Shown one piece after another: positions 10,270 through 15,537 of a DNA stretch of 19,056 bases. The DNA comes from a virus (Duplodnaviria > Heunggongvirae > Uroviricota > Caudoviricetes): the IMG/VR virus record IMGVR_UViG_2713896899_000019, positions 1 to 19,056 of that record; one strand, written 5' to 3'. Within the stretch, counting starts at the first letter, position 1. The number at the start of each line of letters is the position of its first letter. The notes beneath the pieces are model-generated. The model saw only the letters and a program-made list of their open reading frames with translations, was not told the DNA's origin and made no database searches. The translations under genes were made by a program, and so were the position numbers.

Positions 10270-11238
10270 ATGAAAACAGCAGCTGCAGCGAAAGGCCGCT
10301 GGCCTGAAATATTAGAGCACTTCGGCTTGCCGCCGATAACAGGAAAAAATCACTTCAAGGGTGAATGCCCGGTATGCGGTGCACGTGGCAAGTTCCGAAT
10401 TGATGACCGCGACGGTGCAGGAACGTGGATCTGTGTATGTGGTAGTGGCGATGGTATGAAACTTGTCACCCTGACACAGGCGAAGCCATTTAACGAGATT
10501 TGTACCGAAATAGACCGCCTGATCGGTAATGATTACCAACGGGTTAAAATCCCGGTAACCAGCAGCGCCACCAGCTTACGCAAACGGGTATTGAGCAAGT
10601 TTTCAAAACTGGAGGCACTGCGTGGTACATCCGGCGCAGCGTATCTTAATTCTCGTGGAATATTCAGTCTTCCTGCTGAGGCGATCCGGTTCAATGCCAG
10701 GCAGAGACACAACGGGAGTGTGTTCCAGTCTCTTTATTCACTTGCTACGGACGATAAAGGGGAGTTGTGCTATCTGCACCAGACTCTGCTTGATGGTGAT
10801 AAAAAAGCAGATATCGGTAGCAGTGCAAAGCGCCTCAAATCCCTGCAGGAAGATAACTATTTGGATCACGCTCGTTCTGTAGCTATCCGCATGTTTCCTG
10901 TTGCTAGCACTCTGGGTATCGCCGAAGGCATCGAAACAGCGCTGTCAGCGCACCAGATTTATAACGTGAACACTTGGGCAACCATTAACAGCGGCTTTAT
11001 GAAAAAGTTCCGCGTACCAGCTGGTGTTCTGCACCTGATTATTTTTGCCGACCGTGACGAGAACAGCGCCACCGGGCTGGCTGCGGCTTGCGAATGTGCT
11101 CATGCCAATCTGATGGCAAAGAATGACCTGCAGCGCGTGAGCGTGTACTGGCCGGATCACGATGATTTCAACAATATGCTCATGAACGGTGATCAGGTTC
11201 GAGAGCTGGTTTTCCATAAGAAAAAGGCGGTTGCGTAA
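10270..11238 (+). CDS. Primase-like protein: P4-alpha-type zinc-binding motif plus Toprim domain (322 aa)
   Basis: The N-terminal CPVCGARGKFRIDDRDGAGTWICVCG is a primase-helicase zinc-binding motif. The Toprim Glu (AEGIETALS) and DxD (FADRDEN) are present. The start lies 1 nt after the helicase stop. Confidence 0.8.
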   Translation: MKTAAAAKGRWPEILEHFGLPPITGKNHFKGECPVCGARGKFRIDDRDGAGTWICVCGSGDGMKLVTLTQAKPFNEICTEIDRLIGNDYQRVKIPVTSSATSLRKRVLSKFSKLEALRGTSGAAYLNSRGIFSLPAEAIRFNARQRHNGSVFQSLYSLATDDKGELCYLHQTLLDGDKKADIGSSAKRLKSLQEDNYLDHARSVAIRMFPVASTLGIAEGIETALSAHQIYNVNTWATINSGFMKKFRVPAGVLHLIIFADRDENSATGLAAACECAHANLMAKNDLQRVSVYWPDHDDFNNMLMNGDQVRELVFHKKKAVA

Positions 11239-12095
11239 TGCGTACTGATAACAACGAACATAAAGCACTATTCACCATCCCGACGGCAGCGTACAGCTCC
11301 GCCCTCGCAAACATCAAGCCCCTGCCAGAGCAACGGAGAATCACCGGGCATAAGCAGACTGATGCTTATCTTTGGGTGCTGGAGGTTATCCGTCTGAACG
11401 AACCCGCACATCTGGATGCTGCTGAGGCTGCGCTGGTGAAAATTAAAATTTCCCCAAAAGAGGCCCAGGAACGCTATTCGCGTTATCTGCTGGCGAATGG
11501 TGGTGATCCTTTCCAGATTGCTTTCGGTACCATCGGCATGGATAACCCGGCACAGGCAATCAGGATCGCCCGGGAGAATATCAAAAAAGCAACATCAGTC
11601 AGGGCTACGTTTGGTAGCTATGAAGCAGCACTCGAAGATGTGGAAGCCGAGCGAGTGATCAAGTCTTCCCAGAAATTTATCGACGATCATCTCTGGGGCT
11701 GGACTGCAGCCGAGAAGACAGCGGGCAGAATTGATGGCATCCGTATGAATGAAATTGATGATCAGCGTCGTGCATATGTTGATGGCTATCGTGATGTACT
11801 GCCAGAGCCTCATACATTGTCAGACGTAGTTCGTGAGTTTGTTTACTGGGACTGGCTCTACAGTGTTCGCCACACTGCGTCTAAAGAACAGGGCGATGAG
11901 TATGGTTACTCTGAGCATCACGAATCGGTATATGACCGCGAGCGCTACCTTGAAAAATTGCTGATGACCATCAAACCGGTGACACGGGCTGAAGCCGTGG
12001 AGGTGTGTCGTTGGTTTTTGGCAAGCGGAAAGGGCGAATATATGAAAGACAATGGCGCGGCTGTTATTCTTAATCTGGTTGGGGAGTGTGAATAA
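11238..12095 (+). CDS. Hypothetical protein (285 aa), translationally coupled to the primase and Q genes
   Basis: Long ORF with TAATG overlaps at both ends (11235-11240 and 12092-12097). No family recognised. Confidence 0.65.
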   Translation: MRTDNNEHKALFTIPTAAYSSALANIKPLPEQRRITGHKQTDAYLWVLEVIRLNEPAHLDAAEAALVKIKISPKEAQERYSRYLLANGGDPFQIAFGTIGMDNPAQAIRIARENIKKATSVRATFGSYEAALEDVEAERVIKSSQKFIDDHLWGWTAAEKTAGRIDGIRMNEIDDQRRAYVDGYRDVLPEPHTLSDVVREFVYWDWLYSVRHTASKEQGDEYGYSEHHESVYDRERYLEKLLMTIKPVTRAEAVEVCRWFLASGKGEYMKDNGAAVILNLVGECE

Positions 12096-12925
12096 TGAAG
12101 CTTGAGGCATCGCTAAAATACTTCAGTCCTCAGGGAATGTATATCGGCGACGATGTGAAAGGAACCTCTCCGGAACGTCTTACAGGCACCGATGTTATGG
12201 CGGCTATTGGTACCACCAGCAATCGTGAGCGGTTTGGCTTGGCGGCCTTCTTCGGGAAGGCCGGTATCAGCAAGACTGATGAGCAGATGGCAGTCCAAGC
12301 GCTGGCGCGTCACGCGATGGAAATTGCACCGAAGAATGTGCGTAAAGCAGCTGGTGGTGAATTTGGCTGGTGTATGCTGGTACTGGCGCAGTTTGCTTTT
12401 GCTGAGTATTCCCGATCGGCAGACACCAGCGTAACATGCCATAGTTGCAGTGGTACCGGACTAACACCCCGTAAGCAGGTCATTCGTAAGGTTTCATACC
12501 CATGGGGTAAAGCACCATATTGGGCCAGTCGCTCCCGTGCTGTTCGACCGTCAGACTGGGAGAAATGGACAGAGGTAACGGAAGTTGTACCAGTCGTTTG
12601 CGATGTATGTAAAGGGAAGGGAGTGATAAGTGCCAGGTGTCGTTGTGGTGGAAAGGGGGAGGTACTCGACCGCAAAGCTACAAGCGAGCGTGGTGCACCA
12701 GTGTTTAAAATCTGCGAACGTTGCAGCGGAAATGGATTTTCCACGGTACCGTCTACCACAGTATATAAAGTTGTACTGAAGCGGATACCCGAGCTACATG
12801 TCAGGACATGGACGCGTAATTGGAAGCCGTTTCTTGATTCTCTGGTTGACATTTGCCACCAGGAAGAGCGTAAGGCCGATATTGCTTTTCAGAATGTGAC
12901 AAGTTTTGGTGATGATGTGAACTAA
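12095..12925 (+). CDS. Q: Late-gene antiterminator Q, Qin-prophage (QuuQ/YdfT)-like type with a DnaJ-like zinc-finger region (276 aa)
   Basis: Last gene before the late promoter and lysis cassette. The N-terminal region resembles my recollection of E. coli QuuQ. There are four CxxCxGxG-type repeats: CHSCSGTG, CDVCKGKG, CRCGGKG and CERCSGNG. Confidence 0.7.
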   Translation: MKLEASLKYFSPQGMYIGDDVKGTSPERLTGTDVMAAIGTTSNRERFGLAAFFGKAGISKTDEQMAVQALARHAMEIAPKNVRKAAGGEFGWCMLVLAQFAFAEYSRSADTSVTCHSCSGTGLTPRKQVIRKVSYPWGKAPYWASRSRAVRPSDWEKWTEVTEVVPVVCDVCKGKGVISARCRCGGKGEVLDRKATSERGAPVFKICERCSGNGFSTVPSTTVYKVVLKRIPELHVRTWTRNWKPFLDSLVDICHQEERKADIAFQNVTSFGDDVN

Positions 12926-13018
12926 GCTTAGGGTTTTTGCGACATTACACTTGATTTTGTCCGAATCTGTCATGTATGCTTTTAAGCATGTGGAATAATG
13001 CGTAAATGATTTTGATAG

Positions 13019-13040
13019 AAGCCCCTTTCGGGGCTTTTAT
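13019..13040. terminator. GC-rich hairpin terminator shared by the convergent Q gene and the orphan gene
   Basis: The stem pairs aagcccc (13019-13025) with ggggctt (13030-13036) around a tttc loop, followed by TTTTAT on the plus strand and flanked by an A-run on the other side. The stop codon of the minus-strand gene is at 13040-13042. Confidence 0.65.
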
Positions 13041-13972
13041 CATTTCAGCCCTTTTAAAAAGCGTTCGAAATTATGGAATTCAAGTTCATCCGCTGTCGAT
13101 GAGTATTTTATTTTGTTTGCGATGGGACGCAGATTTTTTTTAGTTAGGAATTTACTGGCTTCATGTTTCAGTTTTTTTAATCGCTTGATTCGTTCTTCGA
13201 TTGAACTGGCAATTTTGGCAACATTAGAAATTTCTGGGCTTGGGGCTGTTTGTAGATCAATACACTGAATTTTTTTTAGATCTTCTTTGAGCGCAACAAA
13301 AAAATCACGAAGATTGTTTTCTGGTAAAAGAACATGACTAAATGATACTTTTCCTATGTAGAATTCACTTATTGCCTCTCCAGACTCGCGCATGTGTTCA
13401 TTCATTGCGAACAGAATTGTTTTGGTATTCTTATCAGTTTCCACTTCAGAAAGGGTTACAAGGCCTGTCTGGCTCTTGGTCAAAAAACGAATTTCTGTAG
13501 CACCAAGTCTTCCGGAGTAATTGGAATTTTTACTATTTTCGATGGTAGAAGATAGATAATCTATTGTGGGTTTGATATTTCGTATCGTTTCAATATTTTT
13601 TTGCCACTCTTCACATTTACTTTTTGCGGTGCTAATAATTTCCCGATTGGTTTCGAGTTGCATAAATTTATTGAAACTAAGAACGTTTTCACCAAATTCC
13701 ACACCAAATTCGTTTTTACCACATTTATTTCCGATGTTGGTTTCAATGCCACTAGATGTTTTTACAATATAACCCATTTGATGTGGTTGGTTGCAACCAG
13801 TTAGACCACAGTGGATTTCTTCTTTAAATTTGTAGTAACCAATTATCTCCTCAAGTTGTTGAACTCCTTTGTCTATAGTGGTGACAAAGTTTGGTCTGGA
13901 TATAATTTCCTCCCAGTTTTCAAGTTTCTCGATGCCGTTTTCAGTTCTGAGAAAAATCATGAATCGCTCCAT
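13040..13972 (-). CDS. Orphan 310-aa protein of unknown function (alternative start at 13960, giving 306 aa); candidate moron/defence gene
   Basis: This is the only long minus-strand ORF in the rightward half of the window. It is markedly AT-rich: spot counts of 60-nt lines give about one third G+C, against about one half in Q. GGAG lies 6 nt before the second ATG (13960). A terminator hairpin sits immediately 3' of the gene. I recognise no family. Confidence 0.75.
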   Translation of the reverse strand: MERFMIFLRTENGIEKLENWEEIISRPNFVTTIDKGVQQLEEIIGYYKFKEEIHCGLTGCNQPHQMGYIVKTSSGIETNIGNKCGKNEFGVEFGENVLSFNKFMQLETNREIISTAKSKCEEWQKNIETIRNIKPTIDYLSSTIENSKNSNYSGRLGATEIRFLTKSQTGLVTLSEVETDKNTKTILFAMNEHMRESGEAISEFYIGKVSFSHVLLPENNLRDFFVALKEDLKKIQCIDLQTAPSPEISNVAKIASSIEERIKRLKKLKHEASKFLTKKNLRPIANKIKYSSTADELEFHNFERFLKGLK

Positions 13973-14074
13973 TTGAAAGTGGACCGTTTATTTTATCGGC
14001 ATAAAAATGAGAACACCACAAGTTATTTTATTACCGAATACTTGGTAAAGATGGGTAACTTCGCCACACAGCTT

Positions 14075-14098
14075 AAACCCGCCGCCGTGCGGTTTTTT
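14075..14098 (+). terminator. tR'-like terminator of the short late-promoter leader transcript
   Basis: A short GC stem (ccgc/gcgg, 14079-14092) is followed by T6 (14093-14098). The next bases (tctgcacaacaggtaagagcatt) match, from memory, the sequence just after lambda tR'. The late promoter itself should lie at 13973-14060, but I could not fix its hexamers. Confidence 0.5.
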
Positions 14099-14369
14099 GT
14101 CTGCACAACAGGTAAGAGCATTCTCCCTTATGGGGCTTGGCTTAAATGCACTGAGTGCTCTTATCGTTGTGCTGAATTAAGCGAATACCGGAAGCAGAAC
14201 CGGATCACCAAATGCGTACAGGCGTCATCGCCGCCCAGCAACAGCACAACCCAAACTGAGCCGTAGCCACTGGCTGTCCTGAATTCATCAGTGATAGTTA
14301 CGCTGCGGCCTTCTTTTCCCCATTCCCAATATAAGAACTACGCAATCCGTTACTTGCGGAGGCGTTGCT
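14099..14369 (+). promoter_or_regulatory. Long untranslated late-operon leader, lambda-like at the nucleotide level
   Basis: The stretch gctgaattaagcgaataccggaagcagaaccggatcaccaaatgcgtacaggcgtcatcgccgcccagcaacagcacaacccaaactgagccgtagccactg is nearly identical to my memory of lambda DNA between tR' and S. I accept no ORF here. Confidence 0.45.
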
Positions 14370-14585
14370 ATGAAATCCATGGACAAAATTTCAACGGGCA
14401 TTGCCTACGGCACCTCCGCAGGCAGTGCTGGCTACTGGTTTTTACAGTGGCTTGATCAGGTCAGTCCGTCACAGTGGGCTGCGATTGGTGTACTGGGGAG
14501 TCTGGTTCTGGGCTTCCTGACTTATCTGACAAATCTGTACTTCAAAATCAGAGAAGACAAGCGTAAGGCTGCACGGGGAGAGTAA
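14370..14585 (+). CDS. S: Phage-21-type pinholin (71 aa, dual-start MKSM motif)
   Basis: The sequence [71 protein letters not shown] matches S21 as I recall it. It has two TM segments, Met1/Met4 dual starts and a charged C-terminus. Confidence 0.85.
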
Positions 14586-14589
14586 TTCA

Positions 14590-14940
14590 ATGACTCAAAA
14601 CTATGAACTGATTGTGAAAGGGATCCGCAATTTTGAGAATAAAGTTACGGTAACTTTAGCGTTACGGGACAAAAAACGCTTTGACGGTGAAATTTTTGAC
14701 CTGGACATCTCGCTGGACCGTGTTGAAGGTGCCGCGCTGGAGTTTTATGAGGCAGCAGCCAGAAGGGGCATCAGACAGGTCTTCCTGGATGTTGCTGCCG
14801 GGTTATGTGAAGGGGATGAGCAGTCGCCGGAAAAGCGCCCCGTAATTTTAGATGCGCAGAATGTGTGGATAACCCACAAAGGAAAGCTACCAGGAAGAAT
14901 TACTGGTTCTCTGAAGACTCCTCCAGAATCACAACCTTAA
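14590..14940 (+). CDS. YdfR/DUF1327-like protein inserted between holin and endolysin (116 aa)
   Basis: The N-terminal ~70 aa (MTQNYELIVKGIRNFENKVTVT...RVEGAALEFYEAAARR) resemble E. coli Qin prophage YdfR as I remember it. There is a GGGGAGAG Shine-Dalgarno sequence upstream. Confidence 0.6.
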   Translation: MTQNYELIVKGIRNFENKVTVTLALRDKKRFDGEIFDLDISLDRVEGAALEFYEAAARRGIRQVFLDVAAGLCEGDEQSPEKRPVILDAQNVWITHKGKLPGRITGSLKTPPESQP

Positions 14941-15003: not shown

Positions 15004-15537
15004 ATGAACGCAAAAATCAGATACGGCCTGTCGGCTGCCGTTCTGGCACTGATTGCCGTCGGTGCGCCCGCTCCTGATATTCTCGACCAGTTTCTGGATG
15101 AAAAAGAAGGTAACCACACAACGGCATACCGCGATGGGTCCGGCATCTGGACCATCTGTCGGGGTGCCACGATGGTGGATGGAAAACCCGTTTTTCCCGG
15201 TATGAAACTGTCGAAGGAAAAATGCGACCAGGTCAACGCCATTGAGCGTGATAAGGCGCTGGCATGGGTGGAGCGCAATATTAAAGTACCACTGACCGAA
15301 CCACAAAAAGCGGGTATCGCGTCATTTTGTCCCTATAACATTGGCCCCGGTAAGTGTTTTCCGTCGACGTTTTATAAGCGACTGAATGCCGGTGATCGTA
15401 AAGGTGCATGCGAGGCGATTCGCTGGTGGATAAAAGATGGTGGGCGCGATTGCCGCATACGTTCAAATAACTGCTATGGACAGGTTATTCGTCGTGACCA
15501 GGAAAGCGCATTAGCCTGTTGGGGGATAGATCAGTGA
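15004..15537 (+). CDS. R: SAR (signal-anchor-release) endolysin, T4-lysozyme/GH24 family (177 aa)
   Basis: The N-terminal Ala/Gly-rich weakly hydrophobic segment ([18 protein letters not shown]) is SAR-like. The catalytic spacing E-x8-D-x5-T is visible in [16 protein letters not shown]. The gene follows a pinholin. Confidence 0.85.

Follow-up and report, generated by a model that had tools for sequence, protein, structure and literature searches.

The closest described counterparts of the gene reported here are single genes encoded against a phage late operon. The TaiEcA gene (orf63) of phage phi80 lies antisense in an operon under Q control, and the lysogen expresses it at a level that falls upon Q expression; its product is a tail-assembly-inhibition defence, and the arrangement has been described as a 'noncontiguous operon' (PMC11364771). 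Tab, of the Pseudomonas phage JBD26, is a minus-strand gene of the late operon that has its own promoter, is expressed by the prophage, and gives defence (PMC10884400). The control region of such lambdoid operons, the pR'-qut-tR' unit of lambda, P22 (gene 23), and phi80 (gp17), comprises a -35 hexamer, a spacer element, a -10 hexamer, a -10-like element, and a terminator within about 120 nt after Q. A moron of the Hendrix type is an accessory cassette lying between genes that are adjacent in related phages.

The locus compared with these systems lies in a 19,056-nt stretch of caudovirus DNA (IMG/VR record IMGVR_UViG_2713896899_000019), referred to here in its entirety as the window. An earlier note on this DNA placed the stop of Q at 12925 and a single long ORF on the minus strand at 13040-13972, and both positions were confirmed. 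That ORF, which we call the cargo gene, and its surroundings are made up as follows:

12095-12925, plus strand: late antiterminator Q, 276 aa, of the lambda/P22/phi80 Q family
12951-12980, plus strand: predicted late promoter pR', with -35 TTGATT (12951-12956) and -10 TATGCT (12975-12980)
12956-12965, plus strand: TTTGTCCGAA, a conserved spacer motif and putative Q-binding element
12992-12999, plus strand: -10-like GGAATAAT in the initial transcribed region, a candidate pause signal
13014-13045, plus strand: intrinsic terminator tR', with a GC core at 13019-13036 and a T-tract to 13045
13040-13960, minus strand: cargo gene of the phrog_7003 family, encoding an uncharacterised soluble protein of 306 aa (the listed ORF reaches 13972)
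13967-13995, minus strand: cargo gene signals, a Shine-Dalgarno GGAG (13970-13967) and a -10-like TAAAAT (13995-13990), 29 nt upstream of the ATG
14034-14099, plus strand: a further element with a second, weaker terminator (stem 14081-14093; T-run as far as 14099) that bounds the E. coli cassette on its right side
14100-14369, plus strand: late-operon leader to holin S, which starts at 14370; the first part (14100-14122) matches lambda DNA

Q was identified by two stretches of Pfam PF03589 (E 1.5e-51) and by phrog_127; in tblastn it matched phi80 gp17 at 41% identity, and also P22 gp23 and HK97 Q. A unit with the layout of the lambdoid late promoters follows it directly. The core motif of pR' was found 18-41 nt past the Q stop in all 79 IMG/VR loci, and it occurs in loci of E. 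coli, Salmonella, Cronobacter, Klebsiella, Yersinia, and Morganella with or without the cargo ORF. Two spacer classes of the unit were distinguished, TTTGTCCGAA and TTTGCATAAA. The window's spacer, part of a unit known from sequence prediction, is unlike its lambda, P22, and phi80 counterparts; in phi80 the gp17(Q) site is annotated at the same position. A counterpart of GGAATAAT, of the type TGGGA(A/T)AT, occupies the corresponding position in other loci and in phi80, and by analogy with lambdoid pR' promoters it is a candidate sigma70-dependent pause signal for Q loading. A palindrome overlapping the -10 hexamer (ATGCTTTTAAGCAT, 12976-12989) was considered as an operator or RNA hairpin and dropped, since only 9 of the 79 related loci have a comparable perfect inverted repeat (arms of at least 5 nt) around the -10/+1 region. 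Rfam had no match in the window that reached gathering threshold, and within 12850-14400 its matches were at chance level.

The hairpin at 13019-13036 folds on the plus strand with a minimum free energy of -21.2 kcal/mol (z -6.4), and on the minus strand with -18.3 kcal/mol and a poor U-tract. A hairpin with a T-run lies 82-113 nt past the Q stop in 71 of the 79 related loci, with varied stem sequences, and a terminator is annotated at the matching position in both P22 and phi80. The earlier note had recognised this hairpin and taken it for the cargo gene's own terminator; the structure is real, but it is best read as tR'. It probably ends the convergent cargo-gene transcript as well. The TGA stop of the cargo gene (13040-13042) falls within its T-tract. 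The same note had the cargo gene inserted between Q and the late promoter, its 5' end abutting the late-promoter region. The first of these statements does not hold, as the pR'-tR' unit stands right after Q (12951-13045) in 79 of 79 loci independently of the cargo; the second was an interpretation that found no support, the predicted pR' lying at 12951-12980. With the unit directly after Q, the cargo ORF is downstream of tR' and antisense within the leader of the late operon.

The gene thus has the position that characterises Tai-type genes, antisense to the late operon and downstream of the predicted pR' (12951-13045). Both it and TaiEcA are single genes set against a Q-controlled late operon in a lambdoid phage with the same Q family. 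TaiEcA, however, lies past the lysis genes and before the packaging genes, whereas the window's gene comes right after tR'; and Tai is paired with a cognate anti-defence gene located on the late transcript, whereas none was identified in the window, where 13973-14369 held no conserved candidate partner (counter-defence) ORF. The proteins showed no similarity when the family profile was aligned by hhalign with phi80 gp52/orf63 (TaiEcA; probability 0.1%). Tab shares the minus-strand placement within a late operon, but the window gene's own promoter is only predicted; at 83 aa, located between terminase genes and confined to close relatives, Tab is unrelated to the cargo protein in sequence and size.

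The interval between Q and S had been proposed as a cargo site, and the comparison of related prophages that the earlier note suggested bore this out: slots that were empty, that held a remnant, or that held other cargo were all found, so that the slot varies among phages with the same Q module and the cargo gene is non-essential. In the Klebsiella phage ST11-OXA48phi15.1 the slot is empty, Q-pR'-tR' leading straight to the holin; E. coli 2015C-3121 retains only a 72-nt 3' remnant of the cargo gene; and Cronobacter ENT39118 and many IMG/VR contigs have unrelated reverse genes in its place. Of 80 related IMG/VR contigs, 25 contain a member of the cargo family, in every case on the minus strand and 109-137 nt past Q; the 55 closely related Q modules without it include both spacer classes. 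Among complete E. coli genomes with the window's Q type, 38 of 41 carry a family member. Elsewhere the slot contains stx2f (phi467), a PipA-family effector, TerB, or IS elements; in phiP27 it contains L22, a homologue of the defence gene PD-Lambda-1 (E 2e-89), and one PD-T4-10_A match was found among the slot contents. Such cargo (stx2f of phi467, L22 of phiP27, the reverse genes of Stx2a_1447 and ENT39118) shares with the window's gene the slot and its presence/absence polymorphism, but the proteins are unrelated (hhalign found no relation between the family and the ENT39118 slot gene), and stx and L22 point in the direction of late transcription, the window's gene against it.

The cargo gene is also set apart by base composition. 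As the earlier note had estimated, the region is AT-rich, with a G+C of 0.34-0.39 over 12900-14099, while Q and the lysis genes have 0.49-0.54; the coding sequence itself has a GC of 0.354 and a GC3 of 0.303 where the surrounding loci have 0.48-0.52, and the contrast recurs across six genera. Horizontal acquisition had been deduced from this composition, a deduction we could not sustain: family members in E. coli, Salmonella, Yersinia, Morganella, and Phytobacter have 35-39% G+C at dS >1, so that low G+C is a stable trait of the family and not evidence for recent foreign origin. In E. coli, H-NS typically binds DNA with such a G+C (35%), and the gene could for that reason be silenced instead of constitutively expressed. 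The gene is absent where its flanking elements adjoin and differs from its surroundings in composition, both marks of a moron. We read it as an antisense moron in the lambdoid cargo slot, behind the Q-linked pR'/tR' unit and upstream of the lysis genes, and put the probability of this reading, with the workings proposed below, at about 0.5.

The protein is not the orphan it had been taken for. It matched the phrog_7003 HMM along its full length (E 6.6e-111; residues 5-310 against profile positions 1-309 of 309), and 846 cluster representatives (50% clustering) match its family. They are mostly genes of prophages or mobile elements and usually antisense to their neighbours; PHROG 7003 has no functional annotation, and the family is far wider than it and includes non-phage contexts. 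In 54 family sequences (20-57% identical), C51, C56, H60, and C80 are invariant. The motif, C-x4-C-x3-H-x19-C, supplies the four conserved Cys/His ligand candidates of a zinc finger or zinc knuckle, and on this sequence pattern it is a putative Zn site. The AF2 model (mean pLDDT 88.4) has an N-terminal beta domain, which holds the four residues, and a C-terminal helical domain. It gave no structural match to a known zinc-binding fold, and Foldseek against BFVD returned nothing at E <= 0.001. Pfam and NCBIfam gave no significant match for the protein, nor did Pfam for the 54 family members, and searches of PDB sequences with the single protein and with the profile returned nothing below E 0.07. 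A literature search on the protein accessions and phrog_7003 found no papers, and the papers on Stx2f phages do not discuss the gene.

A defence function is plausible for this protein, if somewhat short of an even chance. The main competitor, which we consider possible but clearly less likely, is that the gene is a lysogenic-conversion or host-fitness factor without a part in defence, for example a protein that binds nucleic acid or protein and so alters host physiology or virulence. Position alone is no sign of defence, since non-defence cargo (stx2f, a PipA-family effector, TerB, and IS elements) occurs in the slot too, and the hosts of the cargo gene include Stx2f STEC, mouse-gut, and clinical isolates. 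No known defence model matched: no family of PADLOC-DB v2.0.0 hit the window's protein at E <= 1, and neither the type-B allele nor the Pseudomonas Atpa001 homologue had a hit at E <= 0.01, while the positive control, phiP27 L22, was assigned to PD-Lambda-1 (E 2e-89). Some distant homologues also reside in ordinary chromosomes near housekeeping genes: in marine bacteria they follow nrdAB, and in Alloalcanivorax the neighbours are panB and an SseB-family gene. Against a host-fitness role, the protein has no TM segment, signal peptide, or secretion signal and resembles no effector or metabolic family, and its family is overwhelmingly carried, in many genera, by temperate phages and mobile elements, a distribution more in keeping with inter-element conflict than with a host-specific trait. 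A narrower family alignment recovered 11 genomic loci. In Klebsiella ST13-OXA48phi12.2 and Pseudomonas Atpa001 the homologue is antisense and next to the repressor, in a Bordetella prophage it is antisense near the terminase, and further homologues adjoin integrase, ImmA-like, or TA genes.

The association of the cargo gene with Q raises another explanation, that its product is a phage regulator of late transcription or of Q itself, silencing pR' or Q in lysogens or timing lysis, and co-evolving with the Q C-terminus and its binding site. Besides the high frequency of the family among complete E. coli genomes with this Q type, two E. coli alleles that are only 26% identical to each other are each tied to their own Q C-terminal segment and promoter-spacer class, with a breakpoint between the two C-terminal types near nt 644 of Q, and in Yersinia and Morganella Q and the ORF are still convergently linked at identities as low as about 40%. 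Physical linkage alone explains such co-inheritance, however. More than half of the related Q modules (55/80) do without the gene, in both spacer classes, a Phytobacter member is paired with an unrelated Q family (DUF1133/PF06530), and other members sit by a repressor or outside phages. We consider a regulatory role unlikely.

Less probable again is the anatomy originally proposed, in which pR' would lie between the start of the ORF and about 14075, tR' would be 14081-14099, and the cargo gene would fall between Q and pR', outside the late transcript. In favour of this arrangement, the T-run at 14081-14099 is followed by TCTGCACAACAGGTAAGAGCATT, 23 nt identical to the sequence directly past lambda's tR' T-run, GATGGGTAACTTCGCC before the T-run resembles lambda's initial transcribed region, and in PhiR5_1 the 14034-14099 element lies 39 nt past a 126-aa Q. 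The terminator noted earlier at 14075-14098 does exist as a terminator-like stem (14081-14093) with a T-run, but it is weak (z -0.25; 14060-14105 folds no better than shuffled sequences), and its identity as tR' was not upheld. The element has a counterpart of 85-87% identity in phiP27, Stx2a_1447, and PhiR5_1, and is common to phages with unrelated Q types (113 and 126 aa), while it is missing from Salmonella, Yersinia, Morganella, type-B E. coli, and Klebsiella loci with the window's Q family. The post-Q unit, by comparison, is present in every one of the 79 loci in its two spacer classes, is, in the Klebsiella phage without cargo, the sole promoter/terminator unit ahead of the holin, and has homologues in phi80 and P22 that are annotated as pR'/tR'. 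The element after the cargo is a second terminator, unrelated to the first, that the lambda, P22, and phi80 units do not have; homology among E. coli loci stops at its T-run. The sRNA StxS was also considered for 14034-14098; StxS belongs to phages with a 144-aa Q and has its 3' end 258 nt downstream of pR'. Beyond the leader, holin S was identified by PF04971 (E 1.4e-35).

The cargo gene most likely starts at M5 (ATG, 13958-13960) and not at the listed ORF end of 13972, given the GGAG 6 nt upstream and the 306-aa length of nearly all homologues and RefSeq models. Its predicted promoter has a weak -35, but E. coli, Salmonella, Phytobacter, and Yersinia share a conserved -10-like hexamer with its flanks (GCGATAAAATGAACG), and Morganella has TATAAT. 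An independently transcribed cassette, as the earlier note envisaged, is plausible with this predicted promoter and a terminator shared with tR'. Measured against copies at dS 0.8-1.2, dN/dS was 0.09-0.11 (0.04-0.06 in the N-terminal and 0.11-0.14 in the C-terminal domain); by this sequence comparison the gene is under strong purifying selection, and together with the full-length phrog_7003 match this marks it as a real gene and not a chance ORF. That it is instead a decaying, non-functional passenger with a relic foreign composition is very improbable: some copies are split by frameshifts (phi467, L043, L045) or otherwise frameshifted or truncated (L042 among them) and one lineage has deleted the gene, but dN/dS near 0.1, an intact frame of 305-316 aa across genera, the invariant Cys/His motif, and the confident fold all speak against decay.

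For the antisense moron, the following sequence of events is proposed. In the lysogen, transcripts from pR' would halt at tR' (13019-13045), at the 3' end of the cargo gene, and transcription of the cargo gene, starting from its own promoter (about 13990) and ending at the tR' hairpin, could proceed free of collision. Upon induction, Q-modified RNA polymerase would cross tR', about 0.9 kb antisense to the cargo gene, and the second terminator, and continue into S and R; this convergent transcription would dampen the cargo gene by the noncontiguous-operon logic of phi80 Tai. The product would be a soluble cytoplasmic protein with a conserved, putatively Zn-binding N-terminal domain and a faster-evolving helical C-terminal domain. 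Its likeliest role would be a benefit to the lysogen, the leading candidate being exclusion of, or defence against, other phages. More speculatively, and with slightly less confidence than for a defence function in general, the gene may encode a new single-gene prophage immunity protein that joins an undescribed zinc-binding N-terminal module to a fast-evolving helical sensor domain, has Q-dependent late transcription as its off-switch, and modulates stx2f output in Stx2f phages. For such a protein, antisense placement behind tR' would provide a Q-driven off-switch when its own prophage goes lytic, and thus a means of avoiding self-immunity.

These comparisons give, by prediction, a new location to the late promoter and the terminator that go with a widespread Q type, which occurs in Stx2f phages and in many prophages of E. 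coli, Salmonella, Klebsiella, and Enterobacter, and they place a cargo slot right behind tR'. Toxins, effectors, a known defence gene, and many reverse-strand genes without known function occupy that slot, and the cargo gene is its commonest occupant in E. coli. It represents a large unannotated family in which the fold is predicted with confidence, the Cys/His motif does not vary, and no relative is known, a combination that makes it a cheap and concrete candidate for screens of defence or lysogen fitness. In phages of the phi467 type, stx2f transcription must cross the convergent cargo gene, which may thereby influence expression of the toxin.

Between antiterminator Q and the holin gene S the window carries a single long ORF, on the minus strand at 13040-13972 (hereafter the cargo gene). 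The genes and elements around it are as follows:

10270-11238, Toprim/zinc-ribbon primase
11238-12095, 285-aa protein of no known function (phrog_6204)
12095-12925, antiterminator Q (Pfam PF03589, matched in two stretches, E 1.5e-51)
12951-12956, -35-like TTGATT, then an 18-nt spacer with TTTGTCCGAA
12975-12980, -10-like TATGCT
12992-12999, -10-like element GGAATAAT
13019-13036, hairpin with a T-tract to 13045 (-21.2 kcal/mol, z -6.4)
13040-13972, minus strand, cargo gene
14370-14585, P21-type holin
14590-14940, DUF1327/YdfR protein
15004-15537, lysozyme

The G+C content is 0.34-0.39 over 12900-14099, compared with 0.49-0.54 on either side. What the earlier note had observed in the sequence, namely the long opposite-strand ORF, the drop in G+C, the hairpin at 13019-13036, and a weaker terminator-like site, was all correct. 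In the E. coli, Salmonella, and Cronobacter relatives, too, the phrog_6204 gene always stands between primase and Q, its start and stop codons overlapping theirs; the phrog_6204 protein gave a weak PADLOC match to PbeC (E 0.0015) and is sometimes labelled 'helix-turn-helix domain containing' in RefSeq. On the plus strand, a 151-aa ORF with a GTG start (13811-14266) covers the cargo gene's 5' end together with the second terminator and runs across the homology boundary at 14099; it is most likely spurious.

The placement of the cargo gene between Q and the late promoter, as first proposed, is not supported: a pR'/tR'-like unit lies directly after Q. Such a unit followed the homologous Q in every locus examined, including E. 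coli 90-3040, E. coli 2015C-3121 (which lacks the cargo ORF), the Salmonella, Yersinia, Morganella, and E. coli type-B loci, Cronobacter phage ENT39118 (which carries a different reverse gene), and Klebsiella phage ST11-OXA48phi15.1, which has no cargo and where it is the sole such unit before the holin. Of 80 IMG/VR contigs whose Q is 75% identical or more, 79 extend far enough past Q to be scored; the core promoter motif was found 18-41 nt past the Q stop in 79 of 79, with two spacer classes, TTTGTCCGAA and TTTGCATAAA, and a hairpin with T-run 82-113 nt past the stop in 71 of 79, with highly varied stem sequences. The window's Q belongs to the lambda/P22/phi80 Q family. The annotated pR', qut-like site, transcript start, and tR' of P22, at 43-136 nt past gene 23, have the same geometry as in the window, as do the -35, gp17(Q) site in the spacer, -10, and terminator annotated directly after Q (41% identical to the window's) in phi80, which has a second terminator before its holin. 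Given this unit after every related Q and the annotation of P22 and phi80, 12951-13045 is very probably the cognate pR'-qut-tR' unit, which would place the ORF downstream of tR', antisense within the late-operon leader.

The second, weaker terminator-like site (14081-14093 plus T-run) ends a 65-nt segment (14034-14098) that is 85-87% identical to one in phages phiP27, Stx2a_1447, and PhiR5_1, whose Q proteins (113-126 aa) are unrelated to that of the window. The 23 nt past its T-run (to 14122) are identical to lambda DNA just past lambda tR', presumably the reason that the element at 14075-14098 was initially named tR'-like. Its fold was no improvement over shuffled sequence, and the Salmonella, Yersinia, Morganella, and type-B loci do not have the segment. 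Homology among E. coli loci with the window's allele (type A) stops exactly at this T-run, the right-hand boundary of the cassette. We read the element as a module boundary, possibly left over from the promoter-proximal region of a different Q type, and it may be an extra barrier to non-antiterminated transcription leaving the AT-rich cargo.

The cargo ORF is a real, constrained gene. Compared with copies at dS 0.8-1.2, dN/dS was 0.09-0.11, with 0.04-0.06 over the N-terminal 95 residues versus 0.11-0.14 over the rest. Translation most likely starts at the second ATG (13958-13960), which has GGAG upstream at the correct spacing and gives 306 aa, the length of nearly all homologues and RefSeq models; the gene's stop codon falls within the T-tract that follows the 13019-13036 hairpin. 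The gene is not an orphan, as had been supposed: the protein matches phrog_7003 end to end (E 6.6e-111), and searching 1.84 billion cluster representatives with a profile returned 846 relatives at E <= 0.001 (159 at E <= 1e-30), almost always of 280-320 aa. Close homologues, all labelled hypothetical, occur in E. coli, Salmonella, Enterobacter, Citrobacter, Leclercia, Pectobacterium, and Providencia. Nor can low G+C be taken as a mark of recent foreign origin; at 35-39% in all enteric members, inside loci of 46-52%, it is a stable trait of the family and thus no sign of recent arrival. Interrupted copies exist: in the Stx2f reference phage phi467 (L001, 6118-7035) the gene is split by two frameshifts and annotated as two CDSs, and in three IMG/VR contigs (L042, L043, L045) it is split or truncated. 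At least one of the frameshifts falls at a homopolymer T-run, and these copies may reflect sequencing error or decay.

Across 54 members of 20-57% identity, ten residues are invariant (Y43, C51, C56, H60, G63, G77, C80, G81, F85, and N276); the Cys and His residues form a C-x4-C-x3-H-x19-C pattern suggestive of a putative zinc site. The AlphaFold2 model (mean pLDDT 88.4) has two domains, the N-terminal one rich in beta strands and the second made up of long helices, and the protein has no hydrophobic segment (top Kyte-Doolittle 19-residue mean 0.73). Speculatively, the conserved N-terminal module and more variable helical C-terminal domain could make an effector-plus-sensor protein. No significant match to the protein was found in Pfam, NCBIfam, or PADLOC (the 2023 release has no model for the family), to the 54 members in Pfam, among PDB sequences queried with the single protein or the profile, or by Foldseek of the model against BFVD. 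Literature searches by accession or PHROG id found no paper on the protein, and the Stx2f-phage papers examined do not discuss the gene.

The window's Q type was present in 41 of 5426 complete E. coli genomes, 16 with the window's cargo allele and 22 with a 314-aa allele (type B) that is 26% identical (BLASTP E 1e-26), shares the Cys/His motif, and goes together with another Q C-terminal segment and the TTTGCATAAA promoter-spacer class. The other three retain a deletion remnant: only 186 nt past Q, of which about 72 nt belong to the 3' end of the cargo gene. Because the changed Q C-terminus travels with the TTTGCATAAA spacer and the divergent allele, recombination inside Q is implied, which would swap the Q C-terminus, binding site, and cargo as one block. 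Q in the 22 genomes is 97-98% identical to the window's Q before a breakpoint near nt 644 (~12738) and divergent after it. Elsewhere, Q and the cargo gene also lie next to each other and converge: in Salmonella, where the pair is found with two different virion modules, and, at about 40% identity, in Yersinia and Morganella. The Phytobacter cargo gene likewise stands between Q and the holin-lysozyme genes; the Q there is of an unrelated family (DUF1133/PF06530).

The family occurs in 25 of the 80 IMG/VR contigs, always on the minus strand and 109-137 nt past Q. For 70 contigs, at least 2 kb of sequence past Q was available; among these, the first ORF of at least 100 aa to start within 1.3 kb of Q ran on the minus strand in 33 and on the plus strand in 32, and 5 had none. 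ORFs starting within 1.5 kb formed 53 sequence clusters, most in one to few contigs. Run on 38 representatives, Pfam and PADLOC identified holins, lysozymes, IS transposases, an HNH endonuclease, a PipA-family effector, TerB, DUF6575, DUF6367, and one PD-T4-10_A match. Presence in 25 of 80 contigs and the varied slot contents thus show that the gene is not universally conserved with this Q type, in agreement with its earlier description as variable cargo. In phi467 the cargo gene is followed by stx2f. The equivalent slot of phiP27, upstream of stx2e, is held by a validated defence family, since L22 is a PD-Lambda-1 homologue (PADLOC E 2e-89); L22 (L003, the phiP27 sequence, 1744-2973) lies between Q and the shared 14034-14098-like element and has a T5orf172/MUG113 domain. 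The Stx2a_1447 slot (L028, 860-2423) holds two reverse-strand genes of 179 and 343 aa, and that of ENT39118 (L030, 3435-3929) one of 164 aa; all three are unrelated to the cargo gene, have no known function, and directly follow Q. PADLOC matched none of the three proteins, and the 179-aa protein has a weak membrane-protein-like Pfam match. The slot is a true cargo hotspot with mixed contents, of which defence genes are only a part.

More distant homologues lie beside the repressor, antisense to leftward early genes, in Klebsiella phage ST13-OXA48phi12.2 and Pseudomonas phage Atpa001; near a CI-like S24 repressor in Pseudomonas fluorescens; antisense and adjoining terminase in Bordetella; near an integrase and a Bro-N protein in Piscinibacter; adjoining an HTH/ImmA-like gene in Thermomonas; on a Rep3 plasmid-like contig; and in an island with TacA-type TA genes, a PLD-like gene, and an integrase. 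Most of the family resides on mobile elements, above all temperate phages, and its genes usually run opposite to the surrounding transcription. A same-strand second gene lies 3' of the homologue in ST13-OXA48phi12.2 (L032, 4454-4888; 144 aa) and Atpa001 (L033, 4500-5489; 329 aa), so some members may work as two-gene units, unlike the window's single gene; neither second gene matched Pfam or PADLOC. A minority of homologues occupy ordinary chromosomal neighbourhoods, which cautions against assuming a phage-specific role. In marine metagenome contigs (L019-L021; e.g. L019, 4592-5446), a 284-aa homologue, 33% identical over its N-terminal part, is encoded directly after nrdA-nrdB, on the same strand, and is followed by a 79-aa ORF; the surroundings are chromosomal, not phage. 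In Alloalcanivorax (L034) a similar stand-alone homologue has panB on one side and an SseB-family gene on the other.

Sequence comparison shows where the pR'-like unit, terminator, cargo gene, and lysis genes lie, and the following working is proposed. In the lysogen, constitutive pR' transcripts would stop at tR', at the 3' end of the cargo gene, which would be transcribed from its own predicted promoter (a conserved -10-like TAAAAT at 13995-13990, 29 nt 5' of the ATG, with a weak -35). Upon induction, Q-modified polymerase would run antisense through the cargo gene and both terminators into S and R, lowering cargo gene expression. Such 'noncontiguous operon' behaviour has been shown for TaiEcA of phi80, a phage of the same Q family, where Tai is present in lysogens and falls on Q expression (PMC11364771); JBD26 Tab is a minus-strand defence moron with its own promoter within the late operon (PMC10884400). 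Both differ from the cargo protein in being unrelated to it. We favour an independently expressed moron dampened by late transcription, with a probability of roughly 0.6. DNA of 35% G+C is typically H-NS-bound in E. coli, and expression in the lysogen is therefore not to be assumed. As to function, an anti-phage role is the leading candidate, though less likely than not; another lysogen-fitness function is unlikely, and a regulator of Q or late transcription is improbable.

The cargo gene is genuine, well-delimited cargo of a known kind, a moron in a lambdoid late leader. Its family is large and unannotated; the fold is predicted with confidence, the Cys/His motif is invariant, and no relatives of the family could be detected. 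The product is thus an unproven but reasonable candidate for a new protein of defence or lysogen fitness encoded by a prophage.
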